Shown piece after piece: positions 29,301-64,000 of a DNA stretch of 64,000 nucleotides. This DNA comes from Antedon mediterranea. Lineage: Eukaryota > Animalia > Echinodermata. The stretch covers positions 2,728,001 to 2,792,000 of the forward strand of contig NC_092680.1 in assembly GCF_964355755.1 (NCBI RefSeq), written 5' to 3'. The notes beneath the pieces are model-generated. The model was not told the origin of the DNA and ran no database searches. It worked only from the letters and a program-made list of their open reading frames with translations. How positions within the stretch are numbered: the first letter of the stretch is position 1; each line of letters begins with the position of its first letter. Made by a program: the position numbers and the translations under genes.

Positions 29301-31411
29301 CCCATTAACAAAAATTACCTTCCTTTTTGTGTTTAGGCTTAGATCCATTGCCTTGTGGAAATATCAATCACTTTATTTTGTCCTCAACAGGAAACTATTT
29401 TTAGTATATTTTATAGTATACAAATATTATTATTATATATACATTACAATATTTAACACTATATATAAAACACTTTACTTTAAAATATGAAAGTCACAAA
29501 TTAGTAACTATAATTTAGATTTAGGTTCATGTTAAAAATATTAGCCCTGCGCATCATACCTCCTTTTTTTTCAATAAAAACTGAAATTGATAAAGTACGG
29601 TATATAGTTGTTTTATATTTTTGTATTATACGAAAAGAAGCCCATATTTTTTTAGTACTATTAAGTGGGCTTTTTTGTGAGATTGGATACTTTTCGAGAC
29701 TACTTTTGCAAACTAAATGACTGCTGTAAATTTTGTGAACTGCTAGCTACTAGAATAATAGAATTTTTGGGACATTACCTGCCATTTATGCATTTGAGAA
29801 GCCCATATTATCTTGAAAAGAAGTGGGCTTCATTTCGAGATTAATTTTGTCGACTAAAAGAGGGGAGATTTTTTTCGAAAACAAGCCCAGGGGACTTTCT
29901 TTTCCAGGTTTTACTAACGTCTTTGTTTTACATTGTTTGTTGTTAAATGAATTGAAAAATACATCACTCCTTTGGCTTCAGTATCCAGGGTGATCCATGA
30001 TTTTGGATTTTTGGGGACAGGGGTAGGCAGTATATAGTGAGATATTTCCCTCTCATATACCAAGTATTGTATCGTTTTATGTACAAGAAGTGCTTTAAAA
30101 ATGACTGCATGAAGCCGTTTAAGCTGTACAGTACAACTTTATTTAACATACATTAAGCCAACATATTTTCATTAACATTCAGCGAACGGTACACCGTGAT
30201 TGGTCACTTTGGTGTCCCTGTATGCAACACATGATACAGTTTTGCTGGTTTATTGGCAAATATCACTAATTATTGAGAAAAACATTTTATAATAATGATC
30301 GACGATGATAGTAAACATACTCTACAGTAATAACATTATTTACTAGTTGTGCTATCAACAATGCATTGGTAACGTGCACTTTAAGAAATTCTTCAACAAT
30401 TCAACTAGAGTCCAGTGCTTTTAAAAGAGGCTAATAGTAAAACAATTATTCATTTGGTTCTTGGGCAGTGACTCAAAATTTCAGCAAATGTTTAAATCAA
30501 ATGCAATACGGTTTACATTAATGTTTTCATTTTAGGGCCGTACCAACAAACAAAGTGGTGCGTTGCAGGTGAGATCTAGGAACCTGGTACCCCCTGTAAT
30601 ATATAATTTTATCGTACTGTACTATATACTGTATAATTAAAAATGTATTCGATTTGTAATGTTAGATTTCTCAGTGGTAAAGAGTAATGTGTATATAAAG
30701 TATAGGTGGACCTCTTTGATGTGTGGCTACAGCCCTGCAATGCTTAAAATAGACATTGTTTTCATATCCATCACGGTTTTAAGTTTGATGCAATTTTATT
30801 CACTCGGAGTAATAGTAATTGACAATGACATGCTAATTTATAATCGGAATTCAATCCAACTTGCTGTATAGTGCTAAAATAATAAAAGACAAAACTAAAC
30901 AACCGCCTATATAATTGTTACTATACCTTAAATACTTTTGAACTACCTAATATGTATTATACATTAATTGTATCAGCTGCAGTATAACATATATATGCAG
31001 ACCCAGGTATAAGTTAATAATCATACACAGTATAGACTAGTGTTAAAGTGGTTTTAATTTTTGTAAAATATATTAAAGATCCCAAATACATAGATTAACT
31101 ATACTATATACCACAGTATAATACCAAGTCTGTTCAAATTCATTAATGTTTTTAACATTTCGGAAGTTTAAAGTGTTTGGTAAAATCACTGCAACGATTG
31201 AAAAAAGAAATAATACTATCAAATAAGATTTCAAAAATATTAACTATTCCAAGGATGAATTTGTAAATTCGTCGGTGGAATGCTACATCATAAATACCTA
31301 GCTCTTGGATTCGAATAAACTCAAAACCACACTCATATATAATTATACTTTGTACAAGAAAAAAAACCCCAAAAATTAAGAATAGACTATGTTATTGTTG
31401 ATAATCAGCTA

Positions 31412-34400
31412 TTAGGCCCTAATATGATTAGTAGGCGATTGGCATAAAAGGCGTTCATCCTCAAAAGCAAAGCTGATGCCGCCTTCGTCGCCGTCCGCTG
31501 TGAGGCGTTTGTGGTACTTGATGGCTTGTTTCTTGGCAAATTCCTTGTTTTCTTGTTGTAACATCTCCTGCATTGATGATCTGTTGTAGAAAACAATGCC
31601 ACAATTAACTTCGTTTGTAATTTTTATTGCTCTCCAAAACAAAGCAGACAAAAAAAATCAATGTGGTTCCCAATAGAGTCCCACACAACCAAGTTCCACC
31701 CATGACAAGACATTGTATGTAAAGTGTGGACAAAAAATAAAAAGGGCACTATTAAAAACTATTGTAAACAATGGGTATTTCAGGCAATTTCTGTGTTACA
31801 TACCAATGTGCATAATTGGGATATTTTGGTAAACCAAAACAATTTTGAGAAATTGCATCTTTAGCGGTCAATCGAAATATCAATTATTGGTAAGTCTGAA
31901 TATATTGCCATGTTGTTTTCATGAGAACCAAGAAGTTGTGCTAGTATGCCGGTATTTGGGCAATAGTGTTAACATAAATTACACATTCTCAATACCAGAC
32001 ATATTTGGCCAGCCTAAAGGTGTCCGGTATTAGGGGAGTTGACCAATGTTTCTGGGTTATTTAAGCATTTTGAAACATCTTATGGTAGTGATGTGCCAAA
32101 ATACGGTAGTGATATGACATCATGTCATATATGGGCACATAACATTTGTTTTGTCACATAAAGTTTGATAGTGTAGACAGAGCTTTATAGCTATATACAG
32201 AAAAAGTGTACACATAATTTGTAGGCCTGCTTTAGTTCACTTCCCTGTGGTAACGTATGGGTCGTGAGTGGAATCAGGCCAGGTTACTCTTCCCTCTTGT
32301 ATTGCAGACTGGTAAACATATCTACCAGCCTGCCTTTGTGGAGAGGGTGAAAGAATAAATGGTGCATGAACTTTGACATGTCGCTTACCTCAACTTATTT
32401 GGGAGCACATAATACAACACAGGTCGCTTGAAACCATTGAACTCCGACCCTGCACACACAGTGTAAGCTCCCATATCTAAAATAAATAAATAACAAAACA
32501 TGACGCTCAATCATAACTGTATATTGTGGGTGCAAAGATCTTGTATATATATATAAACAGTGTTACATAATTTGCATTTTTGTAGGCCTGCTTTAGTTCA
32601 CTTCCCTGTGGTAACGTATGGGTCGTGAGTGGAATCAGGCCAGGTTACTCTTCCCTCTTGTATTGCAGACCGGTAAACATATCTACCAGCCTGCCTTTGT
32701 GGAGAGGGTGAAAGTAAAATGTACTGTAAATATTCTTACCTTTGAATATAATCCATTCGCCAACCTGAAGCTCAGCCATGGTTGTGTGTTCGATGATTCT
32801 GTCCAGGCCATCACAAGACGGACCCCAGATGCTAGTGAAGTATTCCAGCTCATCAGTATGATCCTAAAATAAATTATGAAATAATCCTAAACTCAAGAAA
32901 AATGACCCGAGTGCAGTCAAGAACTGTGGTAAAAAGTCTTAAACACTACCTAAATATCAATCCAATATAACATTATTAAGGAATATCAAATACATTAAAA
33001 GATGGTTAAAGCTCTGTCTACGCTATCAAAAAATGTAATGTGCCCATATGGACATGATGTCATATCACTACCATATTTGGGCATACAACTCCCATATTTG
33101 GGTACATCATCAATTTTCATTTAAGAATTGGGTCACCCCACTGAAACGGTTGCATGAACTTTCCAGTCTGCCATTAAGTTTCAGATAGACACTCCAAACC
33201 ACTCGGCGAATGCTTATTGCATAAATATTTACACTCCAACTATAAATGTATTATCATTAGTAAGCAATTGAATTAATAAAACAATATGGTTGTGTATTTT
33301 TTTTTATATATTGCAACTTAATCTATCCAATCCTAACAGATTGGCTAAATTTCTATCTTGCCATTTTATAGTGCCACGTTATATTTTGTGGTTCTATTGC
33401 AAAAATCATGTTCAGAATTTGGCGAGGGGCTGGTGACTGGGGCATTCAAAAACCAATTTGTAATGTGTTCCATCTACAATCTGTTCTACATCTAAAATGA
33501 AACGCATTAGCCCATTCTTCTTAGTTTAAATGTATGTGTATTGTTTCTGGGGTCTTTCTCGAGACCAGAAACTTGTTTTCTTCTATGTTTACATTTATGT
33601 ACACACCTATAATTATATGTGACCCGATCTGGCAAAACCCTCTCTTTGTCGGCAATTCAAAATTCACGTAATCAGTCAAAATACGTCCAAATCGACTACC
33701 CTGGCAGATTACATGTTTTTGCATTTTCGAAATATTTCACTATCTAAGAATACGTCTACCTGATTTAAACTCCCGAAATTTAACTAAAATTATGAAAAAA
33801 GAGAGTTTTAAAAACATGTATTTTCCTCAAGCCTAACAATTTATTCACGATCTACGCTAAAATTTTGCGTAAATTCAGTTGAAAGTTGCCGAGTTTTACG
33901 ACATTTTGATCGCCAGTTCGCTGCACAATGTTGAAAGGTCACACATCAAAATAAAGCTCATCCATTTGACATTCCAAATATGGAAGTTTTAGGGCGGAGT
34001 TTAAAGAAGGAACCAATGAAAACTTTGATTTACTATGACATCATTTCAGAAAATTCGGTTCTTCGAAGTTTCTGGAACAGCGAACTGCGTGTGTTGCTAT
34101 GGCGCATCATCGCAATAACAAACGTTATTGGTCAACGCGCTAGATGTTATACGCTCTACGCGCGGAAATAAAAAGTTGTTTACATTTTTGTGAGGTTATT
34201 TTTATTGTACACACAGCATGTCGTAAATTGGAATAAAAACGATTTTAATATTCAAAGTAAAGTGTTCTGCAATAGCTGTAGTGTGTATTTGTTTATTCCA
34301 TAGTAAAATAGACAAGTCAAAAACAATTCACGTCATAAATTCAATTGTATTTTCTATATTTTTTTGGGCTAGTAGGCCTAATTTTATTATGTTGTAGGCC

Positions 34401-37400
34401 TACTACTACTGGGCCTAGCTTTATATTATTGTCAATAGTTTTATTTATACATTTTATATATCCAATCGGCTCTTAATCATTTATTTAATTTATTGTCCAT
34501 TCCTTTCATATTAAATGTTTTTTTAAATCATTGGATTCAAGCCCAAACATCACAGCGAATCTTCCACGTTATAAAAAAAAACAAATGTAATCGTCAATAC
34601 AGTGTAATGTTAGCTTGCAATTAGCTGTGACTCTGCAAGGCGCCTAACTTGTCTAGACTAACGCTAGCCCCCGTGTCGATGCACCGCTGCCATACACGGC
34701 CTGATGAACACCCATCATCAGTAGGTCTTAATACAGGCGATGACGGCGAAAATCTGAATAGGCGCGCCTAGGCCTAGGCCTGCTTGGTTTTTTGCCGTTG
34801 ATATCGTAAACACTTCCGAAACCAGTTAACATTAGCTTGGTAGTTATAATGCTGCTTTTCAATAGTGCAAAATAGTTAATTCGAGTGACTAAATAGGTTA
34901 AAACGGCGTCTGAAATCAGTCAAATTGACCATAGTGTCCACGCTGCTGCTATATCGCACACACTTCCTGGTATGACGTCATTGTGCCTTAGACCAAAATA
35001 GCGCGTTGCTACGGAGTGAGTTTTCAGCGCGTATCAAAAAGAATTTCATTGCAAACTTCAAACGCGATTTTCTCGTAAACTAATTGAATGATTTGTAAGT
35101 TTTTAAAATATAATAACTTTTTAAATATTTACTCAATTTTTATGAAATAAACACCATTGCAAAGCTTATGATTCAAATAATCCAAATATATAAAAAAATA
35201 CAAAATGAATATTTCCGACAAAAGTAGGGTTTTGCCAGATCGGGTCACATATTATACTGTATAATGCTATTGTGGAATAAATAAATGTTTTTTGAACTTG
35301 AACTTGAACTGCTTTAAAAACTCGTAAATATTCATTTCTTTCTACACTTACAGTTAAAGTGATTGGTTCAACAACTGCGTGATCGTAGAGTAGACAGTTG
35401 AAAGATCCGTATACCCCGTCGTTCACATAGTACATGTAAGCAGGTTCCTCGCATTTGTTTGGCGCAACAGTGTTGGAAACAAGGTCTGGAAAAGAGCAAT
35501 AACACAATGATTATTATTTATTCGACATGTACATATGAGAGGGTTCATTCGATGTTCATTTCAAGGTGGTAACCCTGTTCACAAGCTTGACTAACATTAT
35601 CATAAAAATCTGGAATCATACAAGATTCAAACCCAAGTGTCTGGGATCAGTAGGAGAGTTCTAAGCAAGATATAATTTGGCTTTGTTTGGCTCAGCTAGA
35701 TATTGAGTACATTTGTGACTTTATCATCAATCATATCAGATAGGGCAAGTCAAATATCTCATCATTGCACAAACTAGGGTATAGTAACATGCAGGCATAA
35801 CTAAAGTTTTAGATCTGGATTTATATATGTATTATTCATTATCTAATGTACTTAAGCTCTGTCTGCACTATCAAACTGGATGTGACAATATATGGACATG
35901 ATGATGTCATCAGGACCACACTTTTTTTGTCAAACTAGTTTGTTAGTGTATATATAGCTTTAGATTCTGCTAAGAATGGGATAAATTAAAATTATTTTGT
36001 GTGGGATTTCGACTCTTTAATTGTTGCATAATCTTAATGAGCCTAGTCTTAAATAGTCAAAAAAAAAAAAAAAATGACTGATTATCTAAAATGTCATACC
36101 TTTTGATTCAGGCACTTCAAATGTTTTGATGTCACGGGAAACAATACGCTTAGCAGTGACGTTCACAGCGAGAGTGAAGGCAGATGCCACAAAGTAACGA
36201 CCAGGCTCAGCGATCACACGGACGCCACAGTCGTTAGGGAAATACTCGCCCAAGGCACAGTTGATTACGTCTGCAAACTGAATTAAATTATTCCATTATA
36301 GTTTTCATTTTCAAAACTTTTTATTTATATGGGGATAATTTAGAATTATTCAGAATAATAAGAAACAGAGCTATTGCCTCCTAAACACAACAAAAACTTG
36401 CACTATTTAAGCTGGCCACATTTTAATACATGTTTCACCATACACCTATTTTATAATGTATTTTTTAGACCAATTTATGTTGACGATCACAGATAATATT
36501 TATAGTCGGCATGCATTGTGTATCATTCCTTTAAATAAAAAACCTGCTGTACCTCTTCAAAAGCTATCGGAGCACTTGCTTGACCTGGAAATCCGCCGCC
36601 AATGTCTAGCAAATCCATGTGATAACCCATGTAATCAGCGATATCAAATATTTCACGAGCTGATGCAATTGCTTTTGTGTAAGCACTAGAATCGCGACAG
36701 CCACTGCCAACGTGAAAGCTGAAATAAAAACGGGAAATTAATACAATGGTTTATCTACACAGACAAAATGAAACGAAAATTGGAAATGAAACAATCGGAC
36801 CTATCCTGTATTATCGCTGGCCTAATTTTGAATACACAACATTTTGCTTCATGGTGCCACAGCTGATATTCCCATAAGCAGCAAACATCACATAATGTCT
36901 TAACTAAAATTGTCATCAATTTCAAGGCTAAAATAGAACCGTAACACCAATCATTTTAACAGCTTACTAATTATCTAGTTTGTTTGGCTCAGATAAATTA
37001 TGAGTACATTTGTGACTTTATCTTCAATTAAATCAGATAGGGCAAGTCAAATATATCATCACAGCTCAAACGCCAAAGAAAGAATTTTTAAATGTTTAAA
37101 ATAAATGCTGAATTTAAATATAATATTCAAATTAGAATTGTTAATTTTATATATACAATTATAATAAATAATTTTATTTTTCAGTCAAATAAATATTTTT
37201 ATATAACTGAATATGGAAAAAAACAAAAATATTTTACCTAACGCCAATAACATTGAGATCAAGCTGCATGGCAACCTGTAGTAGATAGCGAGCATGCTTA
37301 GGGTGGCAGCCATATTTTAGGCCTAGCTGGCATTGAGCTGTAGTGTCGTCAGTTAAAATGCGAAGCACTAATCTGCAAGATAAAACACACATGTCAGCAT

Positions 37401-39660
37401 TATTAATGCATGTCAACTTTGTTGAATCAATAATTTATGCTTATAATATTTCTTGGCTCAGCTAGATATTTGAGTACATTTGTGACTTTATCATCAACAA
37501 AATACAGATAGGGCAAGTCAAATATCTCATCACAGCTCAAACACTATCAAAATAATTTGTAATACTTTGTCTGGCTATTAAACTCTGTATGCACTATCAA
37601 ACTAGTTTAACAGTGTCATGTGCCCAAATATAGTAGTGATATGACATCATGTCCATATATGGGCACATCACGTTTTTTTTGTTACATGAAGTTTGATCGT
37701 GTAGACAGAGCTTTATTCAAGTCTAGTGGTCTAGTGAAAAAAAAATTGGCAAGGACAATGTCATTCATAAAGTTACGTACTTTGCAGCTGGATACACCCT
37801 TTTTATCTTGTGCAGCTCGTCTTCATTGTCAAAGGTCATCATTGAAACGTTGGTGTCACAAGCGTACTTTAGATGAGATTTCTGCTTGCAAGGGTTTGCA
37901 AAGATGATACGCGATGGAGACACACTCAACTCCAGCATAGTTTTAATTTCATTCTAAAAATAAAATTATTTTTGTTAAATGACGATAAATATTTTGTAGT
38001 GAAAAAAATGTTTCATAAAAGCATCATCACAAGTGAACGACGTAAATTATCATTCAAGCGACAAAACTAGAATTGGACAATCTGCTGCGACGATTAGGAG
38101 AATTGAGATCTTGCAGTCAAGAACTTTTTAAACAATTTGTCTAGAGTTAACAAAGTTCTAAAGAAAGTTCAGTTTCAGAGATGACTTATCTTATGTATAT
38201 CTAAAGTTTAATGGTATTGTTTGTGGCTCAGAAAAGATTTGAGGTTAGACTTTATCATCATAGAATAACAGTTAGGGCAAGTCAAATCTATCATCAACGC
38301 TACTGTAAGCACAATCACGGTTTGATCATTTTTTATGACTAAAACCATTGGCTCCTAATCACGCAGGCAAATTATCTATGCAATATTTATGGCGCTGTGA
38401 CTATTACCTTGCTGGCACAGTCAAATCCAGTTCCAAGTGCTGCCAGTGTGGCCAGAACCGCAGGATCTGGGTTACATTTCACAGCTAAAAAAAAAACACA
38501 CATAAATATAACACTATAATAAAAATTTTATGAAGCCAGAACTCATTATATGGCGATAATCTACATTTACGTCAGAAGCTACTATTCGTGTCATTGACAT
38601 TTTTTTTATCAAAATCAAACAAATAATAAATTAATACAATGGAATACATAATAAGCATGATTGCCTTAAACATGTAATGTATATATATGATTAGTTAGTA
38701 AGCAATAACCCAATCAATTTAATTTTTATATAGATGAAAAGAAAACCAATATAGCTATTTACCATAATGTGGCTCTACCCGAGGAAGTAGTCTCCTCCAG
38801 CGGGTAAATTTTTTAATGACATCACCCATGTCACAGATGAAAAATGGATCGTCTTGGTCCTAAAAACATAAAAATACAAAAGTAGATTTAATGTAAAAAT
38901 TGCAAACATTTTGTTTTTTTTTAAACTAATATATAACTAACTATAAATAAATTCACAAAATACTGATGTCTAATGTCCTTTTAAACTACAGACAAAAAAG
39001 TGTAATGAGCTCAAATATGGTAGTGATATACTCAAATATGGTAGTGATATGCTCAAATATGCTAGTGATATGCTCAAATATGGTAGTGATATGCTCAAAT
39101 ATGGTAGTGATATGCTCAAATATGGTAGTGATATGCTCAAATATGGTAGTGATATGCTCAAATATGGTAGTGATATGCTCAAATATGGTAGTGATATGCT
39201 CAAATATGGTAGTGATATGCTCAAATATGGTAGCAATATGACATGATTGTGTTCATATATCGGCATATCACATATTGTTATAATACGATGACAAAATTAG
39301 AATATTTTTCATTTTTTATTTTAAAGACATAATAAATTTATTTATTATAATAATTAATTAAGGAAAGTTGTTTAATAAACCAAAATTTAAGGAAAAAAAA
39401 TGTCGACCAGAACTTGTCTGGAAGGATGTTTTTTTATTACTATTTTTAAAAAAGAAATAATTATTTTTACAGCATCAAAACTACAAAATGATTTTAAATT
39501 AATTAACCCTTTTTTCTGACATTATATCTTTACTTGTTATATAATACATATAATTTACCTCTCTGTCATCATGGTTGTGAACCATTTCACTGACTATTTG
39601 GCGAATAGTTTTACGACTATCATGAGTCTTGATTGAAAATGATGCAGTGGTCAAATCCAT
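31412..39660 (-). CDS. ODC1: Ornithine decarboxylase (coding exons 39660-39559, 38859-38763, 38484-38408, 37953-37781, 37372-37238, 36718-36553, 36277-36100, 35485-35352, 32863-32740, 32476-32389, 31580-31412)
   Basis: PHYAVKCN (PLP lysine), [68 protein letters not shown] and MGAYT; the frame is open across all GT-AG junctions. Confidence 0.95.
32217..32350 (-). ncRNA. Intronic H/ACA snoRNA, copy 1 (last ODC intron)
   Basis: Hairpin 1 (ccctct...agaggg; upper stem gcaggctggta/taccagtctgc), H box AGAGTA, hairpin 2 (ggcctg...caggcc), then ACA plus 3 nt; sense to the host gene. Confidence 0.82.
32578..32711 (-). ncRNA. Intronic H/ACA snoRNA, copy 2 (penultimate ODC intron)
   Basis: Nearly identical to copy 1; the one internal change I can see converts a U-A pair to U-G. 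Confidence 0.82.
33618..35249. mobile_element. Non-autonomous DNA transposon with TIRs, TA-flanked, in an ODC intron
   Basis: ta|tgtgacccgatctggcaaaaccct ... agggttttgccagatcgggtcaca|ta; no coding capacity seen; superfamily unassigned. Confidence 0.8.
35685..35774 (-). ncRNA. C/D box snoRNA, SNORD103/SNORD85-like, copy A
   Basis: - strand: terminal stem gtttg/caaac, C box ATGATGA, guide GACTTGCCCT, D' CTGA, C' TGATGA, D CTGA. Confidence 0.88.
36982..37071 (-). ncRNA. C/D box snoRNA, SNORD103/SNORD85-like, copy B
   Basis: C box GTGATGA, same guide, D' CTGA, D CTGA, terminal stem. Confidence 0.88.
37453..37541 (-). ncRNA. C/D box snoRNA, SNORD103/SNORD85-like, copy C
   Basis: C box GTGATGA, same guide, D' CTGT, D CTGA; ends about 80 nt from the 3' splice site. 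Confidence 0.86.
38223..38303 (-). ncRNA. C/D box snoRNA, SNORD103/SNORD85-like, diverged copy D
   Basis: C box TTGATGA, guide GACTTGCCCT kept, D' CTGT, C' ATGATGA, D CTGA, terminal stem gtagc/gccac. Confidence 0.8.
39008..39240. repeat. 21-bp tandem expansion (gctcaaatatggtagtgatat, about 11 units) inside a family A MITE
   Basis: Directly visible; the unit equals the MITE core motif. Confidence 0.92.
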
Positions 39661-39899
39661 TATTACACTAAATTCACAATAAATGCACAAAGTGGCTAAA
39701 CACAGTTACAGATAATAGGGCCTACTAGCTAATACGCAAAAGCCTGCAAAACAAACAAAAATAACAATAAATTATTAGCATTTGCCATCTAGAACACTAG
39801 ACTTACAGAATTACATTTTTATATAATGTATATATTTATGATCTTATAAAAAAACTGGCGACATGGTAAACATCAATTTATTTGCGAGACATAAAGTTG

Positions 39900-40055
39900 A
39901 ACATCATGATATGATCAATAGTTGACCATCATAATATGGTCAGTAGTTGACCATCATGATTTGGTCAGTAGTTGACCACCATGATTTGGTCAGTAGATGA
40001 CAGTCATGATATGGTCTGTAGTTGTTGACCATCATGATATAGTCTGCAGTTGACC
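39900..40055. repeat. ~22-bp degenerate tandem repeat (catcatgatatggtcagtagttgac)
   Basis: About 7 imperfect units in ODC intron 2. Confidence 0.75.
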
Positions 40056-40567
40056 TATAAGAGCGTGAAATGGTACTCTGCTATTTCATTTGCAAGTTCA
40101 AAATTTCATGTCTTCATATGGAAATCTACCTCCTAGCAGGCATTATTAATCTTTGCAGGTGGGCCATATATATTATTTTTAATTATCATACAACCAAGTG
40201 CTAGGTGTTCAAATGCAATAACTCCTTAGTGAGAATATACAGACTTAAATAAAATCTGAAAACAAATAAATACATAAAATGTCTCGCTTATCAAAAAATA
40301 CAGAATATAAAAACACGACATTTAATAATTAGGCACAACTTTGTATGCCGTTAAAAAAAAAACAACAAAGAAATTGACATTCTATCAGACGAAAAAAATC
40401 ATATTAAGCATCACCAATTTATTTTAAAAATAATTTGAAGGTTGATGTTTAAGTATTTATATGCTTTGGTCTTTGTAGCACAATTATGATTAATTTTTTT
40501 TGCACTATATTAATACTAATTGCTATACTTACACTGCAAAGTGAAAAATCTGATCCTTTAGCAAATA

Positions 40568-43500
40568 TCAGCTAGGGTCCCACTCTGGTTCAAAGTTGAT
40601 GTCCACAACCCCAGTTGCTCCTTCTGGTTCTACAGCCCAGTAGATGTTACAATGCCCGCCCTAGAATCAAACAGTTTTTTTTCCATTAAAATAATGCCAC
40701 AACCCTAATCAAAGAGATCTTGGTTAAAATGGAGAAAAAATAAAAAAGAAATTATTTCTGCATTAAAACACCAGGCCTCGAATTTTACCGCGGCCAGTGC
40801 CGTCGGTGCCCTCCCAGTTGGCCTCAATGCCCTCGAAAATAAATAGCACCCACGGCCACTACTGGCCTGCCCTTTTTTTTGCGTTGGCCGCGAGTGCCCT
40901 TTCCGAGTTTTACCACAATAAAAACCACTGAATTAGATAGAAAATAATGTCAAGAAGATTTGTTTACACGACTCGGACGAGACGCAAAACTATCGCCTGT
41001 CTTCGTTGCAAGGGGATTTCCCTAAACGCATTTATTAATACACACAAACAGTAAACAAAACATCGAACATTGCAATAGGGTAACCAAAACAATATCATCC
41101 CGGCCGCCGTGCGTGGTAAATCATGGTATAGATAGTACATTAAAATACAGGGGTGTAAACTTTTAATAATCAAGCTAAAAACGTTCCTCGATCGGAGGTT
41201 ACTGAAAGTATTAAAGTCGCACAATAATCGAGCTAGCCGCCTTCGATAAAAAAAATTACATGCACTCCTAGCTAGCCTAGCCTATCCTCTCCCGCCGCCG
41301 ATCCGGTCGAACACACGCAATTCAATGCATTGGGAAAACAATTCTATTTGACGCACACGCACCCTCTGATAAGAAATTTCACACACTACTAGACTACTCA
41401 CAACGTCGTGTGTGAGAGTACGCGCGAAGGATCGGATCGTTGGAAAAACAATTCCTTTTGACGTACACGCACCCTCTGAGAAGAAAATACCATGTGCGTT
41501 CCTGCATGGTGTAGTCCATTATACGTGTAAAATTAGGGGTGTTTACCTTTAGCACCAAAGTTAAACCTGCACCTCAACCCGAAGATCGTTGGAAGTATAT
41601 CATATTTATATTTTATCGCACCCACCTCAATCCAGCAGACAGATCATCGAAAAATCTTGTTTAACAACGTCGTACACTAAATTACCAAACGCGTTTTTAC
41701 CGAATTCAAGGAAATGGTATAGTCCAGAATACACGTGCCGAAGGCTAAACAGAGAGAGAGAAAGGGGTCGGTGTCCGTCCGTGTTTTGAATTCTTATACA
41801 TATGGGTTATACAGTACTAACAAAAAAGCTTCAGAAATCGAAACTCGGAAAATAACTATAATTTATATTCTACTACATAATGTCATTGGCTTGATTTTTA
41901 CCGTGGTTAACACTCTGTGTATGAATAGTTGTAGGTAAGGCCTACAAACATATTGTTTTTGTATCATGTTTTCTCCGTCGGCTGTTAGCTAAGTAAGGCT
42001 GAGTAGCTTGCTGTTATAAGGGTTTTTATACCTGTTCCGGGCCTTACTTGGTTGGCTTCACATGCCTTTTTATCGCATTATTTGAAACTAAACGAAACAT
42101 TCAACACAGGACTGTAAACTATAAACGCTGAACATCGTACCTATTTATTATTTATATGGATCGTAAATACACGTAATATTTATATGAAATACAAAAAGAT
42201 GTATTGTAGACAGTCCTACTACTACTCCGCGATCTGATGAATAGGGGGAAATCTCCAAAACATTTTGCGGTTAGAATTTTTTTTTTTTTTTGGAAAAAAA
42301 TTCCACCGGAAACAAGCTATTTTTAAATTTTGGCCTAGTTATTAAAATATTTTTTGATTTTGGCCTTGGTGCCCCTTTGATTTAAAACAAATGGCCTTGG
42401 TGCCCCTAAAATCAATGAAAACCGGAGGCCAAATGGCCTTGCCCCTAAAATCCCCAAATTCGAGGCCTGAAACACACTATTTTGTATCAAGTACTGTACT
42501 CAACTAAAATTAAAGTATCAAGTTTTATTTATTTAAAAAAAAATCATTTGCTAATTTATTCATGGTATAGTTGCAGGTAAATGTAAGTGATCTTAAGTAC
42601 ATACAAGTGGCCATTAGGACTGCTAATATTTATTACCCAAGTACTAAGGGCAGAAACAAAAAGTTAATACATACAATACAAGAAAAAAAATGGAAGGAAA
42701 AGGGCTTTTAAAAAAAAATTCTGAAAGACAATGTTTTAACGTTAAAAAAAACAAGCTGTTTAATAATATGTAAAGACACAGCCTGCAGGACCTCGGCATT
42801 TCCGAATGCCGAGGTAAATGCCGAGGTCCTGCTAGCTTACCACGGCATTGATTTGCCGAGGCTCTTTTTATTGATTTAGGCCTTGGGAGTAAAATCAAGG
42901 CTACCACATACACAGCAAATAAATAGTTTTATGCCTATTACAGTTTTTACAAATTTACCTTCCTTACAAGTGAATTAAATATATCTTAACATTTGTACGT
43001 TGGAGTTATTATTAGGCCTACACTGGTTTTATTTTACACACAAGATAGGGCCGGAGAGAGAGGCGAGGCCAGCGACCGCTCCGGCGTTTACAACAACGAC
43101 GAACCACGCTCAGCTCTATCGTTGTGTGATGCGAGTTTAGTGAGGCATGACAAATCACATGACTTATTGTTACTTGGTAGATTCCGGTTTTTCTGCTGTG
43201 ATCATTTTATTTCTTAAGAAGTCATACTACAATTCTTGATTACTTTTATCAATTTTTATATGAAAATGTAGCGTTTAAAGTTGTAATATGAATTAACAGT
43301 CAATAAATATTTAAAACATTATAGTTGTATTGTCAGTTTATTTCTTATTATTATGGTGTCCTGCTGAGAGAATGGAAGAGTCCAACTTGTATTGGTGATT
43401 GAAAACATTCTTGGTTTTGTATTTTTGTACACCAATTATAGGATTAATAAAATCCCAAACAGTACCTACATGTACCAACCTTGTGTTCATTTGACAATGA

Positions 43501-46172
43501 TTAAAAATATAAAAAGAAGTAAATATCAACGTTGTTCGTCTCTTTTTACACTCCGTTTCACAGTCGTGTGAAATACATGGTTGTCATGGTTCTATTATTA
43601 TTACAGCAGCCGCGTAATCGTCATTGGATGATGATCAGCAGATCCTTTTGTGATTGGCCACAAGGGTTCTTTTGTTTGTGTGGTTATTATTAGAGAGCAA
43701 GCCGCGCCGCAAATGCGCTGTACATTTATCAACACAGCTATTTTTAGGTACAATACAGTTAATGTGTGTGATTGAATACTAAAAATAGCTTTGGGGGCTG
43801 AAAAAAAAAAATGCAGACGTGTTCAAGCCGAGGTGGGTTTCGTTTACGTCGGCATTTTTTGGCCGAGGTCATTTCGTCCCAATTTCGAGGGCTGAAGACA
43901 ATAAAAAAAAAATAAAAATATATCTTCTATAATTTTAAACATCATTTTATTTCTAGGCATAGCAAACAAATTTCATATACAGTACAGGACAGAATTATTG
44001 CAAAAATCCCAACGCATTCAACACGTTGTCGTTGCATTGAACGGCTTTCAACGTTTAGTTGTTTATTCAACTAAAGTCATTATCAGCATGTCAAGTAAAC
44101 AATGAGTTATTTCAACAGTTAACACCGTACTGTAGGCCTTCCGGGGGAAAACATGATCTCACGTCGTAAAATCTAACAACGTGGAAATTACGGACATCAA
44201 CACACGAGGCCGCCACCCCGGTTTCCTCAAGAAAAACATGTGTGTTATGACGTATTTAACGATCGTTAATGACGAAGTAATTAATTTTATTTAGGCCTAC
44301 ATTTTTTAGCAAGAGATAAAGTTAAAATATTGTTTCTCTATTTTGGTTTTTATTTTATAATAGTCCCATTGCTTGTTGTAATGTAATTTGAAAGAACTAA
44401 AAAATTTGACGTGTCCGACACCATTACAACATTACATTTTTAAGTACAACAAGCGTTTTGAATACGTTAACAATAGAGCGTGTTGAACCTGTCGACCGTT
44501 CATTGACGACGTTATACAATTGAATTCCATAGCGTTGAACGAGTTGAAAACATTGCGCGTTTTGAAAAGCATCACACTGTAACTGTTTAAAATGTTGGCT
44601 GTTCGCTCGCATATTCTCGCAACTCCCATCCCAATACAGTTTTAGGAGGAGGCCAATATAATTATATTAAGAAACAATAGTATGTTAAAGAGAAAACGCC
44701 TAAACCTCGCCTATAATAATATATTGTCTTGCATCACAATAAAGTGGTTCTTTATTCTGAATTGTTTGGTTATTCAAATATTTGTGGGTTACACCTAGGC
44801 GTGAATAATATGGTATGGCACACGTTTTGATTTTAAAGAAAACGCCTAACATTGCCTATTGTCATCAGATTGGTCATTCCTATTTCTTGGTTATTATATT
44901 TAACACTTTTCTCTGCATGGGTTACGTTAGGCATCACAATAATTAATTTATAATATAATACATAACGATATATTTATGAATAATAAAACTAAACGATTTT
45001 TTCCCTTTTAATTACGTGTTATTTCATAATGAATGAACTTTTCACCTTTCGATCAGTTCGTCCCTCACGTCACGAAAAGCATGCGTGAAAAAGACGACCA
45101 TGCTGGATCGTTATGTTGGTGATGTATTGTTGCCTTCCACGGCGGCGGGTGTAGGCTACGTTGTTTTTATAAATAATCGAGAAAAATGTATTATAGTACT
45201 GCAAAGTTTTTAGTTTGGAAATAATTAATTACGATGTGACCTAGCCTCTAAGATTCACCGCCGCCTTAACTTTGGTATTTAATAGTAATACTACAGTTAA
45301 TATAGGCACACAGTGCGATGGCAGACGCGGCTCATTATACACACAGGGCCTACTCGTTAGTAGTAGGCCTAGTGTAATATATTAAGCTAGGTTTCCGCGG
45401 AAAAATACACATTATGTTTGTTTTCTTCATTATTTGTAATACTGTATTTTATACTATTACTACTACAAATACACACTCGCAATCTGTAATTACCATACGA
45501 ATCGATACGATTGTTCGTTATTTCAACGCAACACATTGTGTTGGTTGAATAACAGTTCAACGAACTCAACACTTTCAACGCCAACGGACAACGCAGTTTC
45601 AACGCGTTGAATGCGTTCAAAATCTGCAATAATTCTGTCCGGTACTGTACTTATAGCCTATTTAATTGTATTAGCCTAGGCCTATACTGTTTTAACATTA
45701 TGATGAAATTCATGAATCTAGGCCTATATTTATAAATTATATTTTCAATCATACATTCCTTTTCCCGATTCTCGACTCAATTACGTGCAAGATTTTGAAA
45801 TGCTAGAAACAAAATGTGAATTAAAAAAAATTGTAGGCTAGCCTAAAACTAATAGGACTTAAAAAAGCCTTGGTTTTACATTAATGTATGATCACGAGGA
45901 ATCGAACTTGGCAGAGGAACTAACAATACTGTATGTACATCAAGTATTGCACAAAAACAGTACACACACCACATGTGCCATATTGACAATGTCACATGCC
46001 GGGTTGCTTGCGTAGCCATCTCCTTCTATCAGCTAGGTTAGTCAGACGGTAATCCAGTCAGTCATGTGTAGGCCTACAAAAGTATTCATGTTTTATTGAA
46101 AAAAAGTAATATTTTACATACCTGGGCTGAAATTTCAGCAGACGATAACCGAATTAAGCTTTTAGGCGGAAT
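40568..46172 (-). CDS. AUU-initiated upstream conserved coding region (uCC) of ODC, 47 aa, split over leader exons (46172-46122 and 40660-40568)
   Basis: aaaATTCCGCCTAAA start, CAG|gtatgt donor, ttctag|GGC acceptor. Spliced peptide (M)PPKSLIRLSSAEISAQGGHCNIYWAVEPEGATGVVDINFEPEWDPS*; both ends match the AZIN1/ODC uCC pattern. Confidence 0.88.
40772..42469. mobile_element. Non-autonomous hAT-like element with 6-bp TSD in ODC intron 1
   Basis: aaacac|CAGGCCTCGAATTT ... AAATTCGAGGCCTG|aaacac; subterminal tgccc/ggcc repeats. Confidence 0.8.
42779..43894. mobile_element. Second hAT-like element with 6-bp TSD in ODC intron 1
   Basis: aagaca|CAGCC ... aatttcgagGGCTG|aagaca; subterminal gccgagg/cctcggc repeats; right end resembles that of 40772-42469. 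Confidence 0.7.
43980..45647. mobile_element. Tc1/mariner (pogo/Tigger-type) non-autonomous element, TA TSD, in ODC intron 1
   Basis: ta|cagtacaggacagaattattgca ... tgcaataattctgtccggtactg|ta; ttcaacg/cgttgaa subterminal repeats. Confidence 0.8.
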
Positions 46173-46259
46173 TTTGGCGGTTTTATTCTACGAAAGACCG
46201 ACAAAAATCAAGAAACTTCATGAGGAAAACTACTACAACACGATTCAATGGCGGGGAGA

Positions 46260-46440
46260 ACGTTAAAAAGAATTTCATTCACGAGGAGGCGGCGTTTACT
46301 CTTAATTCGTGTGTGGGATTACTACACCGCGCATGCGCACACTATATACTTCTTCTGAACACGACACGACGATCGCATCACAGAAATTTACTACGCACGG
46401 CAACAAATTAGTACATACTACGGGGCGCAATTGAGCAGAA
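46260..46440 (-). promoter_or_regulatory. Probable ODC core promoter / TSS region
   Basis: CpG-enriched; TATATA at ~46343-46348, NRF1-like GCGCATGCGC at ~46329-46338 and TCT-like TTCTTTTT at ~46272-46265, upstream of the exon carrying the uCC start. Confidence 0.45.
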
Positions 46441-46852: not shown

Positions 46853-49800
46853 TAGCAGGGTTGCTAACTTCCATTTTTTATGAAGATTGTGCATTTTGTG
46901 ACAAAAGCACCAAATTTGGCACAAACCTTCTTTAGGGTATATCTAACCATCCTAGAAGGGGTGCCCGAAAATCGGAACAATTTAACGACGTCATTTGGAC
47001 CACGCCCTTTTTTTAGTATTACGTAATTAGGTGAAAACTTAAATCTTTGTATATACATACCAAGTTTGGTATCAAATTAAAACTCATGACATGTACATTG
47101 CAATACACACATAACAAATATATGATTTCTCTTCAGACGGAATATATAGGTCAAATAATGTAATTTTCTGTCATATTGAAGGGGATTTCAATCAAAACGC
47201 GCCAATATTGGGCTATGTTATGAACATTGTAGTTATAAGAACAACAACATTCATTTTTGTAATAGAACTACAGTACTAATATATATTTATCCTGTATCAG
47301 TTACTTTCCTTTAACATAATATTAGGAACCACTGAAAAAAAGTATATAAACATATACTGTATCAAACTTGGCTCAATAATCACTGGACTAAGTAAACAGA
47401 CAAAAGACCATTTGACTGACAATTATGGCGTTAGCATCCATAACAATACATGGAGGTGATTATCAACTTTACTTTATGAAATTATTTATCTGGAAACAAA
47501 CACTTATAATGAACAAGTTCCACGGCATGGGTAACAAAGACCAGTGCAAAAAAGACCTGCTGAACGGCACTTGCAGTTCCTTGAGCAATGCAGGCAACCC
47601 ATTCCTCGATAATTGTTCAGAACTTCTGGTCTTGGATGCTCGAGATTGTGCCAATGAAAGTGCAGTAGTGACAGTTCGTACAATTCAGGATGTAGGTACT
47701 ACCCAGTACCAAAAATATTTCAAGGAAGTTATTCTCGACAAGCCATCAAACAGAATAAGCTGCCGTTGTTCAACACACCATGGTCAAAATCAGTGTCCAA
47801 AACAAAGCAACAAGTTAAGAGTTTAAAAAGTGACTGCAGCCTATTCAGTCAACTGTATATTGCAAGTCAATCTAGTGATGGAGATTTGGAAGACTTCTTC
47901 ATGCATGAAAACCAGCCATGGCAACCCTCTTTGGCAGTAAATGGAAAGCTTCGACTACCAACTAAGAAGTCTGAGTTGCTACAGCATTTTGAGACTGAGG
48001 CCAGCCTGAACCTCCTACATATTTTGACGTAAAGGTGTTTGACAGAGCTGCTATTGTCCATGCCCTTTCCAGCAACCATGCATTTACATTTGATGACTAC
48101 GGTGATAAGGTGAGTACATTTCTTTGCATTCAGGATTGTATCTATTGTTTAACCACCACATAATTGGTCACTTCTATATGCGGATCGTTATTCTTGTATC
48201 ATTTGTATGACAGGTCTTTCTACCGTGGACCAGACAGCAGCTGCAGAATAGTAACAGAATTGATATAGTGTGGGACACTTACAGAACAGATAGTCTTAAG
48301 CAGTCTACAGGAGAAAAAAGAGGAAAAGGGGTCAAGAGGAAAGTTGGGGGACAAACAAAGATTCCAGGGAATTTTCCAGACTTTCTGAAAGATCCAGTAA
48401 ATAAAGAGGAGTTATTTAACTTTTTAACTACAAAGGTGTCTACCCATGATTACTCTGACTGCAAAGAAGTTTACATTACATCAGGTAAGTTTTATTATGA
48501 TACATACTAATTTATTTTGTTTGTAACCAAACGATTAATTTACTTATACAGTTTCATACCAATAATTAATTAAAAAGGCATATTAAATTAGTAAGTAATT
48601 CTTGATATATGTCCTGTAGGCAAGTCTGTTGTATGTTGACATCTACTCAACCTATGTCAATCTGCGACCATGAAGAGGCCGACTCCAGGATGTGCATTCA
48701 CATTGATGATGCCTTAAAGAAAGGTAGCAGGGTTATTTTGGTGCGTACAGTTGATACTGATGTCGTTGTTATCCTGGTTGGTATTTTCTGCAATCTAATA
48801 GCCTGTTATCTTGGTACGTGTATCTGGGTCGCATTTGGCATGCGTAAGCACTTCCAATATTTTAATATAAATACCATCTGCCATAACCTAGGAGAGGATA
48901 AGTCAAGAGGGCTGCCAGTTTTTCATGCATTTACTGGGTCCGATACTACATCCCAGTTCTTCGGAAAATCAAAACACTCCGCATGGGAGACGTGGAACTC
49001 ATTTCCAGCAGTCACAGAAGCCTTTCTTTTCATGGCACACCTTTCAAATTTCTAGGAGTCAACTCATCTCAATTCCAGTTGCTAGAGGAGTTTACATGTC
49101 ATCTATACGACAAGACAAGTACTTTAAGAAGTGTTACTAAGCTAAGACAAGATCTTTTTTCAAGAAAGGCACGGACAATGGACAACATTCCTCCTACACA
49201 GGTAAGGGGAGCTTCCATATAATTGTCAATTGTCGTTTAATAATTTATTATCAGATTCATGTTTTTCTTTCATTAAAAGGTAACACCAATCTTTAAATTG
49301 TTTATTGCAGGATGCACTTTTACAGCATTCCAACAGATCCATATACCAAGCAAGCATTTGGACCACCAGTCTACAGCCACAGCAGAATGCTCCATCACCA
49401 GAAGACTTTGGTTGGACTAAAACCGGCAGTACATGAACACCAGTCTGGACAATACTACCTGAAGCATCCAAGGCATGTAGGGAATTGCTAAAGTGTGGCT
49501 GCAAAAAGTTGCCTTTTTGCTCAGGGAACTGCAAGTGTCGTTCAGCAGTGCACTGGTCTTGTTACCCATGCCGTAGAACTTGTTCGTCATCTAGCAACTC
49601 TGTACCATTATAAGCGTTTGTTTCCAGATAAATAATTTCATAAAAGTAAAGTTGATAATCACCTCCATGTATTGTTATGGATGCTAACGCCATAATTGTC
49701 AGTCAAATGGTCTTTTGTCGGTTTATTAATAGTCCAGTGGTTATTGAGCCAAGTTTGATACAGTATATGTTTTAAATACTTTTTTTCAGTGGTTCCTAAT

Positions 49801-57081: not shown

Positions 57082-60000
57082 ATGTCAAAAAAGGAGGAGA
57101 CAGAGTTCATTTTCTTTTGTAATGGACGGAAGGTGGGTAAAACTTATAAGTAAAATAACTTTAACTTATTGTAATTATTCAATGTGGATCCTTTTTTAAG
57201 GAATTATTTGTCATTTCAATTTCTTTATCTATAATTTTCAGATTGTTGACCTAAATATTGATCCCAGTATGACGTTACTCAGTTACCTGCGTCGAAAATG
57301 TATCCTTATTACAACAAAATCGTAACCCAACTAATAACATATTTTGTATATACATAAATATTAGTAACAACTATTAGGTTTCACATTTAAACAGATATAT
57401 ACTGTACATATACTATTGTTTTTACTACTTTGCGGAATTTGTTTCATGAATGCATGTATTATAAGGGACCCTTGCACTTTATTTATATACACGTGTTATA
57501 ATTTCATTTTCATTTTATAGTTGTAGTCTCTCGACTATATATTATATGTCAACCAATATATGTCAATTGTTAATGTTATGATATAATATTTTTGGTCAAT
57601 AAATGTTTCTTGAATGAATGAATGAATTTGACCAACAAACCATAAGATAAAATATACAGAGATAAATTGATAAAGGACTGTTAAAATAAATAAGATTACT
57701 GTAACTACAAGAGTAGCAGTCCCTCTGAATAATAGTCTAAGGACAATGCTACAGTGTATTTAGAGCAACCAAGCGTATCCGTCGTTGTCCACTATCAAGT
57801 AAGTTTGACCAGACCACTATCAAGCCATGACCATACTTGACCATACAAAATATAATACAGTACATAATACAAAAACATTGGCACAGGGCAGAGCAGAGCA
57901 ACACATTACCCTTTGCAGCAAATTAAACAAAAACAATAACAGAACAAAAAAAAAACATTTTACGGAATATATCATTATTATCTGTTGGATCACTGAGTTT
58001 ATTGTATATTAGACCAGTGTGAGAGATAGCACTTTTTAAGGTTGACTAAGTCGTGACAATTGTTTAGACCTTAATTACTTTTCAGTGGGGCTAACAGGAT
58101 CCAAGCTAGGTTGTGGTGAAGGAGGATGCGGTGCATGTACTGTTATGGTGTCTAGTTATAATAAATTGACAACAAATATAACGTAAGACAACTACAACTA
58201 GTAGACTGGCCAAATAACTATATGTAGTATTTTGTATTTGTATTCAAAGAAATATATCAAATATGGCTAATTGTGGCCTACGTCTTTTCAACGTTATATT
58301 TTAACTAAGGTTACAGTAGTGATAATAAGAAAAGTTTTTTAAGATTATATCAGCATAGTAAATCAGAATAAAAATCGTTGATTTGACGGAAATAATCAGT
58401 AAGGTCACGCAATGTAACAAATTAATAATTATTATAATGGACCAGAATGGACACTTGCCAGTTAAACCCCACTTATTTTTTATACAGTACCGGTATATAA
58501 AATGTAAAATGAACAATTGTATTAATTTGGCAACCATCTCGCTGTGACTGACATTAAAAATTAATTACTAGAATATACGCGTGAACTACTACTGGTCAGT
58601 AACAGTATCTTTAAGATCTAGGCCTTCACAAAGCCGCAATAAAGCTAAAACGGTTGAAAAAGTCATTCAAGAATAAATTAGAAAATACAATTAATTAGGG
58701 ATTAGGGTGAAGATATAATCTGTAGGCCTACACTACACCAAATACACACTGCACAATAATGGGAAATGCATTAGTGTAGGCCTACTAAAGTTGAATGACA
58801 ATTAATTATTATTGAATTACAGTCGACTCCGCCTAAGTCGAATTCGCGTAAGTCGAAAAATCGCGAAAGTCGAATGTTTATGAAAGTCCCAATTCTTTCC
58901 TATACATTACACTCATTTTCAACGTATCTACGATGCATGGTCAAGTTGGTAAGTCACGGTCAATGTGCATTGAACCGTATAGGACAATTTATTTTTGCAG
59001 TCACGTAGCCGTAAACGCATGTTTGACAACAGTATGCCAAGTGTACCTGACGTCAGTAACAACTGTAGAGGGGATTGGAAGTATAGAAGACGGATTACAT
59101 CCAGTTCAGGTGTTTGTAAATGCTAATACTATTATAAAACTTTTAAACCAATATTTGCTTTAAAAAGCGTGAATCACTCTTTTTTTCGTTGTGGACAACC
59201 ACTGCAATTTGTTTATTCTACGTAAAATACTATTTTTATTTGTTTTCACATTTATACATCCAACAGCCAAGGACAATAGCAGGCTTTCTTAAAGACACAT
59301 TACAAATATATATTTAAAAAAAAACACAGAACAACAACAACAAGACGAAAACAACAGGCAGAAAAGTTACGAATAAAAACGGTTAAAATTTTAAAAATTA
59401 AAAGTTATATACACATACAGTATTTATTCAATTTAAATTAATAAAGGTTTTGACCATTGCAGCATCTGGATGATGGTGTGTTCCCATTCTCATTGTTAGA
59501 CTATGTTTTACAGTAGTATCATAAAATTAATCGTACATACATGTAATTCATGTTTTATGTAAAGGAAAGGATAGCAAAAGCACATGGTTCTCAGTGTGGC
59601 TTCTGTACCTCTGGCATCGTCATGTCTATGTACACCCTCCTGAGAAACAACGATCAACCATGTATGCCAGACATTGAAGACGCCTTTCAGGGCAACTTAT
59701 GCAGATGTACTGGTTACCGACCAATCTTGGAGGGATACAGAACTTTTACAAAGGTAATATCATTAAAAAATAAAATGGAATCGAAATCTGGCTAGCAACT
59801 ATTGCTGATAACGTGATATTTTGGTTTGCCTATTTAAACAGAAGGAATTCGTTCTTTTGTTCATTTGTTACCATTTTTACAAAACACCGAATTTTCCTAT
59901 TTTATATTTTCTATAGAATAAATAATTGTCCCTACCAATGATCCTATATAAGATCATCAATCATATGAACACTGAGCGTTAACATTGTAGTGTTTTTGTA

Positions 60001-63000: not shown

Positions 63001-63712
63001 TGATTTCAATTACTGTACCTTTTACAAAGCAAGTAAGTTTTTTCGAAAGAAATCATAGTTCGACTTAATTATTCTATACAAACTTACAACCAAGGGATAC
63101 TGTTCATATTAAGATCGTTTTATAGATCTTTTTCTCTTTCTTTAGCTAATATTTTATTAAGGTCTAACGAAAATATTATTTCTTAGATATGATCTTGTAG
63201 GCCTATTTGAAGTCCATAAGCCTTTTTCAAAGTGTTACATTGTCAATTATTCTGTAAAGGTTTCATCTCTGTTGACTAATGCAGTATCTGTATTGTGTTT
63301 CTAATGAAATGCAAAAACAAAACCCCAAAAACTCTGGATTATAATTGTAGTGTGATTAGCAATAAAGAGAATAGTCTTCATCTACAGCATAACATAAATA
63401 ACTACTATCGTGATACGAATGATTAAAGATGGCTCATAGGTATGGGGCGCCGAACATGTCACCACAATGTTTATAGAGTTCAACCATACACAATTTACAT
63501 ATATTTGTTATTTTTCTTTTTCACAAAATAAAGACAGAATATTTTAAGGCGTTTAAACAAGCACATCGACGCGATGACGACATAGCAATTGTCAATGCTG
63601 CATTCAGAGTGGACTTCGACGAGAATACCATTAGAGACTGCACACTCGCATTCGGTGGAATGGCACCAACAACAAAACTTGCAGAGGAAACCATGAAATT
63701 GATGATTGGAAG
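57082..63712 (+). CDS. XDH: Xanthine dehydrogenase/oxidase, 5' part with Fe-S and FAD domains (exons ~57082-57132, 57242-57299, 58086-58182, 59001-59109, 59565-59753, 60244-60373, 60977-61060, 61347-61488, 61680-61847, 62248-62323, 62639-62736, 62923-63032, 63534-63712); continues right of the window
   Basis: [84 protein letters not shown] and RRDDDIA; the last motifs favour XDH over aldehyde oxidase. Confidence 0.92.
57300..58085 (+). other. U12-type (minor spliceosome) GT-AG intron, XDH intron 2
   Basis: Donor GTATCCTT; branch sequence CCTTAAT at 58069-58075, about 10 nt before the AG; short pyrimidine tract. Confidence 0.88.
58818..58910. mobile_element. Tc1/mariner-type terminal fragment
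   Basis: ta|cagtcgactccgcctaagtcgaa with repeated aagtcgaa motifs. Confidence 0.5.
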
Positions 63713-64000
63713 GTACGACAGGGATCATAATAATAATAGTTTATTTTTAGCACATAAGCAAGCTGTCAATGCACTGCACATAATTACACCAGTCATTTTG
63801 GATTATACACATATGGAAACATACTCCCATAATTATGTCAATAACATCAAGGTGTGCATATCGCAATAATTATTTTATTAGACCATTAGACTAAAATCTT
63901 TAAAAATAATTATACAAAGTGAATTTACAAGTTTTAAAATGTTACTGATGAAGTTGATCAAAATTTAAAAAAATGTAATAATAATGAATTATGATGATGA

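Follow-up and report, generated by a model that had tools for sequence, protein, structure and literature searches.

A PEW-bearing upstream conserved coding frame in the ornithine decarboxylase leader of the feather star Antedon mediterranea and a conserved in-frame tail behind its UGA stop

Introduction

The ornithine decarboxylase (ODC) gene of the feather star Antedon mediterranea lies on the minus strand of a 64,000-nucleotide stretch of contig NC_092680.1 (the window, to which all unprefixed positions refer), and its spliced leader contains a 47-codon upstream conserved coding (uCC) frame that begins at an AUU codon and ends in EPEWDPS followed by a UGA stop. To judge from its sequence, this frame is almost certainly orthologous to the ODC uCC of other animals. 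We give slightly better than an even chance to the reading as a whole: that this crinoid ODC uCC, likely initiated at AUU, represses ODC at high polyamine levels, that its UGA is leaky, and that an in-frame tail behind the UGA provides a predicted second pause.

The uCC serves as a model for ribosome queuing, by a mechanism that depends on the tripeptide PPW, mapped as the pause site in AZIN1 (PMC9082881). "Almost all" uCCs carry two prolines, and the animal uCCs of six phyla end in Pro-Ser (PMC2811004); here and below, statements drawn from cited papers refer to the excerpts of them that were available. The uCC itself is already known and the crinoid element is a variant of it; what is new is a deuterostome carrier of the tail, with transcript evidence, in which PPW has been lost. 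A first-pass annotation of this stretch, made from the letters alone, had described the AUU frame and its PEW variant and had overlooked two features, the tail and an AUG-initiated upstream open reading frame (uORF) that precedes the AUU.

Results

The AUU frame is spliced into the ODC leader

The frame is divided by an intron on the minus strand. Its first part, the AUU and 16 further codons (46122..46172), ends at a phase-0 donor with GT as the next dinucleotide; leader intron 1 is a GT-AG intron of 5461 nt (40661..46121); and the second part, preceded by AG, comprises 30 codons and the UGA (40568..40660), with the C-terminal motif EPEWDPS-stop at 40568..40591. Joining 46172-46122 to 40660-40568 in phase 0, as the first-pass annotation had claimed, does give the 47-codon frame ending in EPEWDPS. 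Contig evidence came from two runs. X1 is an RNA-like run from another study that we treat as RNA, since GT-AG joins are present there and absent in X4, a DNA-like run from which the window itself may derive. A 57-nt X1 contig (depth 142) spans 40633-40662 and then runs on into letters whose only match in the window is 46124-46150; it reaches 46150 and stops short of the AUU. Because this contig spans 46122/40660, the junction, which the earlier annotation had named for verification by RNA-seq, is transcribed; an unspliced counterpart contig in X1 has a depth of 13. Another X1 contig (depth 121) omits 40532-39744 and continues into the ODC exon at 38859. It thereby removes leader intron 2, a GT-AG intron of 789 nt (39744..40532) whose join is absent in X4, that run being contiguous across 39260-40780. 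A possible small exon near 40255 is skipped in X1. These spliced contigs tie the frame to the ODC exons, and the frame therefore sits on the leader of the ODC mRNA.

The ODC AUG at 39660, which is the start of protein P0001, lies 118 nt 3' of the UGA in a different frame, and the spliced leader between the AUU and this AUG is free of AUG codons, as had been predicted. The AUU stands in the context GCCAAA ATT C, with A at -3, and is the first near-cognate codon past the in-frame stop. The pattern EP.W.PS-stop occurs once in all six frames of the 64 kb. The Glu codon of PEW is GAG (40585-40583), two changes away from a Pro codon; X1 and X4 show zero differences over 40532-40662, and since PEW is identical in both runs, the Glu codon is not an assembly error. 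The two differences that X1 does show in the next exon (39692 and 39697) are 3' of the tandem stop described below. No Pfam family matches the 30-residue exon, and a phmmer search with it against 1.84 billion representatives returned three hits, the two inspected being unrelated repeat proteins.

Relatives share the frame and retain PPW

Relatives were sought by scanning metagenome contigs with an ODC alignment. Of the 588 matches confirmed in this way the best 80 were kept; the leaders of 39 of these were screened and 14 were printed fully. Seven leaders (L001-L006 and L008) end in EPPW, three residues and a stop, and the whole frame is present in six of these, at 47-50 codons and with AUU and A at -3 in 6/6. 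The window shares QGG, PEG and N.EP.WDPS-stop with them, and its peptide is three residues shorter between PEG and the C-terminal motif. The first-pass annotation had made its proposal depend on conservation of the frame in relatives; the AUU, the A at -3 and the motifs are indeed shared. By a tree and by BLAST against 20 named proteins, L002, L005 and L008 cluster with a bivalve (98/100), whereas L001 and L004, whose best hit is an annelid, are placed in a lophotrochozoan group of weak support (86/78).

A protein set was assembled from two profile searches (11 of 20 and 49 of 53 candidates) and two cluster members, yielding 53 distinct uCC-like proteins; this count leaves out P0135, a gyrase that had been listed in the cluster of P0126. 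EPPW is present in 53/53 of these proteins, most of which end in DPS, and PPW in 7/7 related transcripts, while PEW occurs in neither group. Most of the protein sample is fish-like and part of it is redundant; it was gathered by means of shared words and includes no named echinoderm. By these comparisons, then, PEW is uncommon, and its uniqueness is not implied. No other echinoderm uCC was found in the sampled sequences. Of the variant motif proposed earlier, the Pro-to-Glu change is thus the unusual part, whereas relatives, too, usually have Asp in DPS; the Pro-Ser-stop ending is retained, as had been stated. Among the other sequences, L034:140-290 contains a divergent uCC-like frame with IQG and ELPW that ends GPLR-stop, another natural loss of PPW, and L056 contains a PPW frame of another type. 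Two uCC-like calls, P0133 and P0137, end in DPSR, one residue past the usual stop.

A coding-like tail follows the UGA

A further 17 codons (51 nt) follow the UGA in frame without a stop, crossing intron 2 within codon 12, before a tandem UAG UAG is reached. The first 35 nt of this tail (40533..40567, minus strand) begin with YLLK, and its last 16 nt end with RIS and are followed by the tandem stop (39722..39743, minus strand). A tail of equal length is found in L001 and L004, in both cases behind UGA-UAU and before UAG. In the uCC frame the window tail is identical at 13/17 residues to L001 and at 12/17 to L004, as against 2-6/17 in the other frames, and the residue changes are D/E, I/V, H/Q, F/L, V/I and R/C. 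Compared with L001, seven codons are identical, six synonymous and four changed; with L004 the counts are four, eight and five. Nucleotide differences fall on the three codon positions as 5/1/9 (L001) and 8/1/12 (L004), and randomised placement of the same number and kind of changes matched the score in 1 (L001) and 0 (L004) of 20000 trials. Three-way invariance at positions 1, 2 and 3 is 8/17, 16/17 and 5/17 within the tail, dropping to 1/8, 3/8 and 1/8 beyond the second stop. The tail has a pS of 0.53-0.93 against a pN of 0.08-0.26 and includes a Leu-Leu codon swap and a serine switch among AGC, TCC and TCA. When 670,646 17-mers of the best 80 of 588 loci were scored against the window tail, only the L001 and L004 tails reached 65 and 64, the next value being 33. 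A further version of the first 11-12 tail residues occurs in P0126 and P0138, proteins from large contigs in which the stop was called as Trp, and this version ends at the point that corresponds to the intron of the window. All tail carriers have UGA, a stop that is inferred for P0126 and P0138. On these comparisons, the tail is conserved in a protein-like manner and in frame up to a shared second stop, which suggests that the Pro-Ser-stop is leaky and not a plain end.

Readthrough, RNA structure and other routes to the tail

This conservation is best explained by readthrough of the UGA, and we consider it reasonably probable, from the substitution pattern, that the tail is translated in this way. 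Decoding by a near-cognate tRNA requires no extra element and is in keeping with the pathway: spermidine raised UGA readthrough of OPRL1 more than 20-fold, to more than 25% (PMC9841425), and AMD1 ribosomes that pass the first stop stall when they meet the following one (PMC13025110). A +1 frameshift of the antizyme type at the UGA was considered and rejected, since the Ser codon is AGC and a +1 stop follows within three codons in the window, L001 and L004.

A rather unlikely alternative, close to that of the first-pass annotation, is that the uCC ends at the UGA, that slow termination at the Pro-Ser-stop senses polyamines, and that the downstream bases owe their conservation to an RNA element, namely a hairpin in which the stop is buried. 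The retained Pro-Ser-stop is in keeping with it, and a hairpin from the Pro codon to tail codon 11 is the minimum-energy fold in L001, L002, L004 and L005, strongly so in L001 (z -3.9). The bivalve-like loci L002, L005 and L008 also keep the motif, their 2-nt loss sitting in the predicted loop. Yet seven of eight single folds, the window exon included, are no better than shuffles; none of the 13 consensus pairs changes on both sides; and covariation in a hand-drawn 15-pair hairpin is no higher than in shuffled columns (431/500). The window exon lacks the hairpin of the relatives, and in the spliced RNA the stop is instead covered by another stem (z -3.07, 0/300 shuffles), a further point for an RNA element. 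This stem pairs the PS-UGA region with the RIS-UAG region (40579-40533 with 39743-39719, minus strand) and is absent from L001 and L004. The last six codons, which lie outside the hairpin, nevertheless show synonymous swaps and the shared stop. Structure may contribute, to judge from these folds; it leaves the synonymous pattern unexplained and explains the last six codons least of all.

That the tail is translated by some route other than readthrough, such as splicing to an inner CAG acceptor (40552-40550), a near-cognate start of its own, A-to-I editing of the UGA to Trp, or selenocysteine insertion, appears improbable. In its favour, the window shares the CAG, followed by AUU or GUG, with L001, L004 and L005, exon 1 would splice there in frame, and in both the window and L001 the stop is predicted to fall within a stem. 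Against this, synonymous changes also affect the five codons that precede the CAG, the acceptor is used by no contig (contigs being the only material consulted), the transcripts read UGA, and no near-cognate codon in good context stands at one shared site. Searches for a selenocysteine insertion sequence (SECIS) were likewise negative: Rfam models gave only chance-level hits in seven loci and in window positions 29800-31800, although the 3' untranslated region may extend further and divergent elements can escape the models, and a crude pattern found none in the window or in L004.

The leader upstream of the AUU

An AUG uORF of 31 codons (46183..46278, minus strand) precedes the frame, its stop ending 10 nt 5' of the AUU. 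It has a second in-frame AUG at 46221 (12 codons), and both AUGs are in poor context; the first, at 46278, may lie inside the mRNA. The AUG uORF of L004 (L004:60-95) likewise ends exactly 10 nt before its AUU, and AUG uORFs are also present upstream of the uCC in L002, L003 and L005. The uORF peptides of the window and of L004 both contain LDF, possibly by chance. Extra AUG uORFs are known from uCC leaders (PMC2811004). Further upstream, a TATA-like hexamer and a GCGCATGCGC palindrome (46329..46348, minus strand) are predicted from sequence to form the likely core promoter. We take the GCGCATGCGC palindrome to be NRF1-like.

The ODC gene and its surroundings

The ODC coding sequence (31412..39660, minus strand) encodes 480 aa in 11 exons, matched from 39660 to 31415 by mapping of P0001, the 480-aa ornithine decarboxylase of the crinoid Antedon mediterranea, to which one ODC exon is a 100% match; four ODC exons match Pfam families PF02784 or PF00278. 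Lys69, HVGS, GGGF, EPGR and GPSCD, including its cysteine, are all retained in P0001; these motifs are the signature of an active enzyme. A very high-copy short repeat occupies ODC introns near 32150, 33050, 35920, 37650 and 39000-39250. Directly downstream of ODC, at about 29700-24976 (minus strand), lies a gene with C-terminal C2H2 zinc fingers that presumably resembles a KLF10/11-type factor. Elsewhere, exons at 16403-19531 and 59547-63866 (both plus strand) resemble, as we assume, a proteasome alpha subunit and xanthine dehydrogenase, and transposon-like reading frame remnants are found at 47416-49219 (plus strand) and 10679-10182 (minus strand).

Discussion

Loss of PPW raises the question of where a ribosome would pause on the crinoid uCC. 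The yeast eIF5A-dependent pause motifs include PPW, EPP, WDP and DPS (PMC5499558, Fig. S4). Two of these listed motifs are lost from the crinoid uCC and two, WDP and DPS, are kept; because they are kept, an elongation pause may remain, and the sequence suggests that it may persist at W-D-P-S. The first-pass annotation had proposed that sensing shifted from elongation to termination, which is plausible by analogy, slow termination on reaching a Pro-Ser-stop having been described for HOL1 (PMC11550727).

By analogy with AZIN1 and HOL1, most scanning subunits at low polyamine levels would bypass the weak AUGs and the AUU and initiate at ODC. At high polyamine levels eIF5A would be inhibited, the ribosome would linger at the end of the uCC, and the resulting queue would increase initiation at the AUU. 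Lacking Pro-Pro, the pause would most likely fall on W-D-P-S-UGA, through elongation at WDP and DPS together with slow termination. Slow termination, combined with polyamine-enhanced near-cognate decoding, could then allow some ribosomes to pass the UGA and proceed to the UAG UAG, 61 nt before the ODC AUG. The parts of this scheme differ in their standing. Polyamine-responsive repression of ODC is, given the known systems, quite likely. Stalling on the tail is suggested by the constraint on it, its position and the AMD1 precedent; that the tail itself is an arrest peptide is a tentative proposal that we hold at less than even odds. More doubtful still is the broader idea that the ancestral bilaterian ODC uCC was a two-stage sensor, in which polyamines promote UGA readthrough into a 17-residue arrest peptide, and that this second stage has become the main switch in the PPW-less feather star. 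A two-stage sensor, if true, would amount to regulated stop readthrough inside a non-AUG uORF acting as a metabolite sensor.

Several observations weigh against the overall reading. Only three DNA sequences carry the tail, together with one protein pair, and for L001 versus L004 alone the comparison is weak (p 0.019), with the +1 frame also 13/17 identical, although that frame contains a stop. Five of the seven related transcripts are without an in-frame tail: L003 and L006 have UGA and no tail, and in L002, L005 and L008 the stop is UAG or UAA and the frame is broken. That these three nevertheless retain part of the nucleotide motif points to constraint of some kind at the RNA level. The retained motif lies at L002:474-520, L005:253-300 and L008:66-110, and in L002 and L005 QVF.LA can still be read in another frame. 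The tail is likewise absent from nine fish-like proteins, which extend a single residue beyond the read-through stop. These proteins (P0139-P0142, P0149, P0159, P0161, P0162 and P0164) end in PS-W, an ending that suggests a UGA followed by an immediate second stop. The context UGA-UAU, present in all three DNA carriers, is not among the leaky contexts named in the available text of PMC9272376. Finally, PEW and EPE are absent from the yeast eIF5A list (PMC5499558, Fig. S4), so that the crinoid element could simply be a weaker one.

It is very unlikely that the crinoid uCC is a decaying or weakened element that lost sensing with PPW and has been maintained as a constitutive dampener or through inertia: the constancy of PPW in the 53 proteins and seven transcripts, its mapping as the AZIN1 pause (PMC9082881) and the three-residue shortening between PEG and the motif would agree with decay, whereas the AUU, its context, the frame, the W, DPS, the UGA and the tail are intact across two introns, two studies agree on the exon, and two prolines are described for almost all, not all, uCCs (PMC2811004), with LPW in L034. 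As a natural PPW-less allele with the rest intact, the crinoid element tests whether the Pro-Ser-stop or WDP/DPS can carry the response.

A full-text literature search (including PMC9082881, PMC5009743, PMC7530721, PMC13578949, PMC9272376, 10.1101/710061, PMC11818727 and PMC8892498) returned no PEW uCC and no uCC readthrough in the text available; the primary uCC alignments were outside its coverage and may show either. The crinoid element resembles the animal ODC/AZIN1 uCC in its place in the leader of an ODC homologue, its AUU in good context, its length of about 47 codons, its C-terminal W and Pro-Ser-stop, and its extra AUG uORFs (PMC2811004, PMC9082881, PMC11550727, PMC11818727, 10.1101/710061). 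It differs in having PEW for PPW, and is an orthologue by descent and not a PPW-type sensor; it differs also from the animal uCC, as described in the available portions of the same five sources, in its conserved in-frame tail behind the UGA. Unlike in AZIN1, the main reading frame encodes an enzyme with intact active-site motifs and not an antizyme inhibitor. With the yeast HOL1 uORF and the small uORF of plant AdoMetDC it shares the Pro-Ser-stop, for which eIF5A-sensitive termination is a plausible sensor (PMC11550727, PMC2811004); those uORFs are separate and unrelated, and in contrast to them the crinoid frame starts at AUU and its stop is apparently passed. The vertebrate AMD1 C-tail follows a main reading frame and is 384 nt long (PMC13025110), whereas the crinoid tail follows a non-AUG uORF, spans 51 nt, and has a stall that is only predicted. 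A coding tail in an echinoderm and in lophotrochozoans, if true, adds a step to the queuing model, and would bring to four the kinds of recoding in the polyamine pathway, the others being antizyme frameshifting, non-AUG queuing and AMD1 readthrough.

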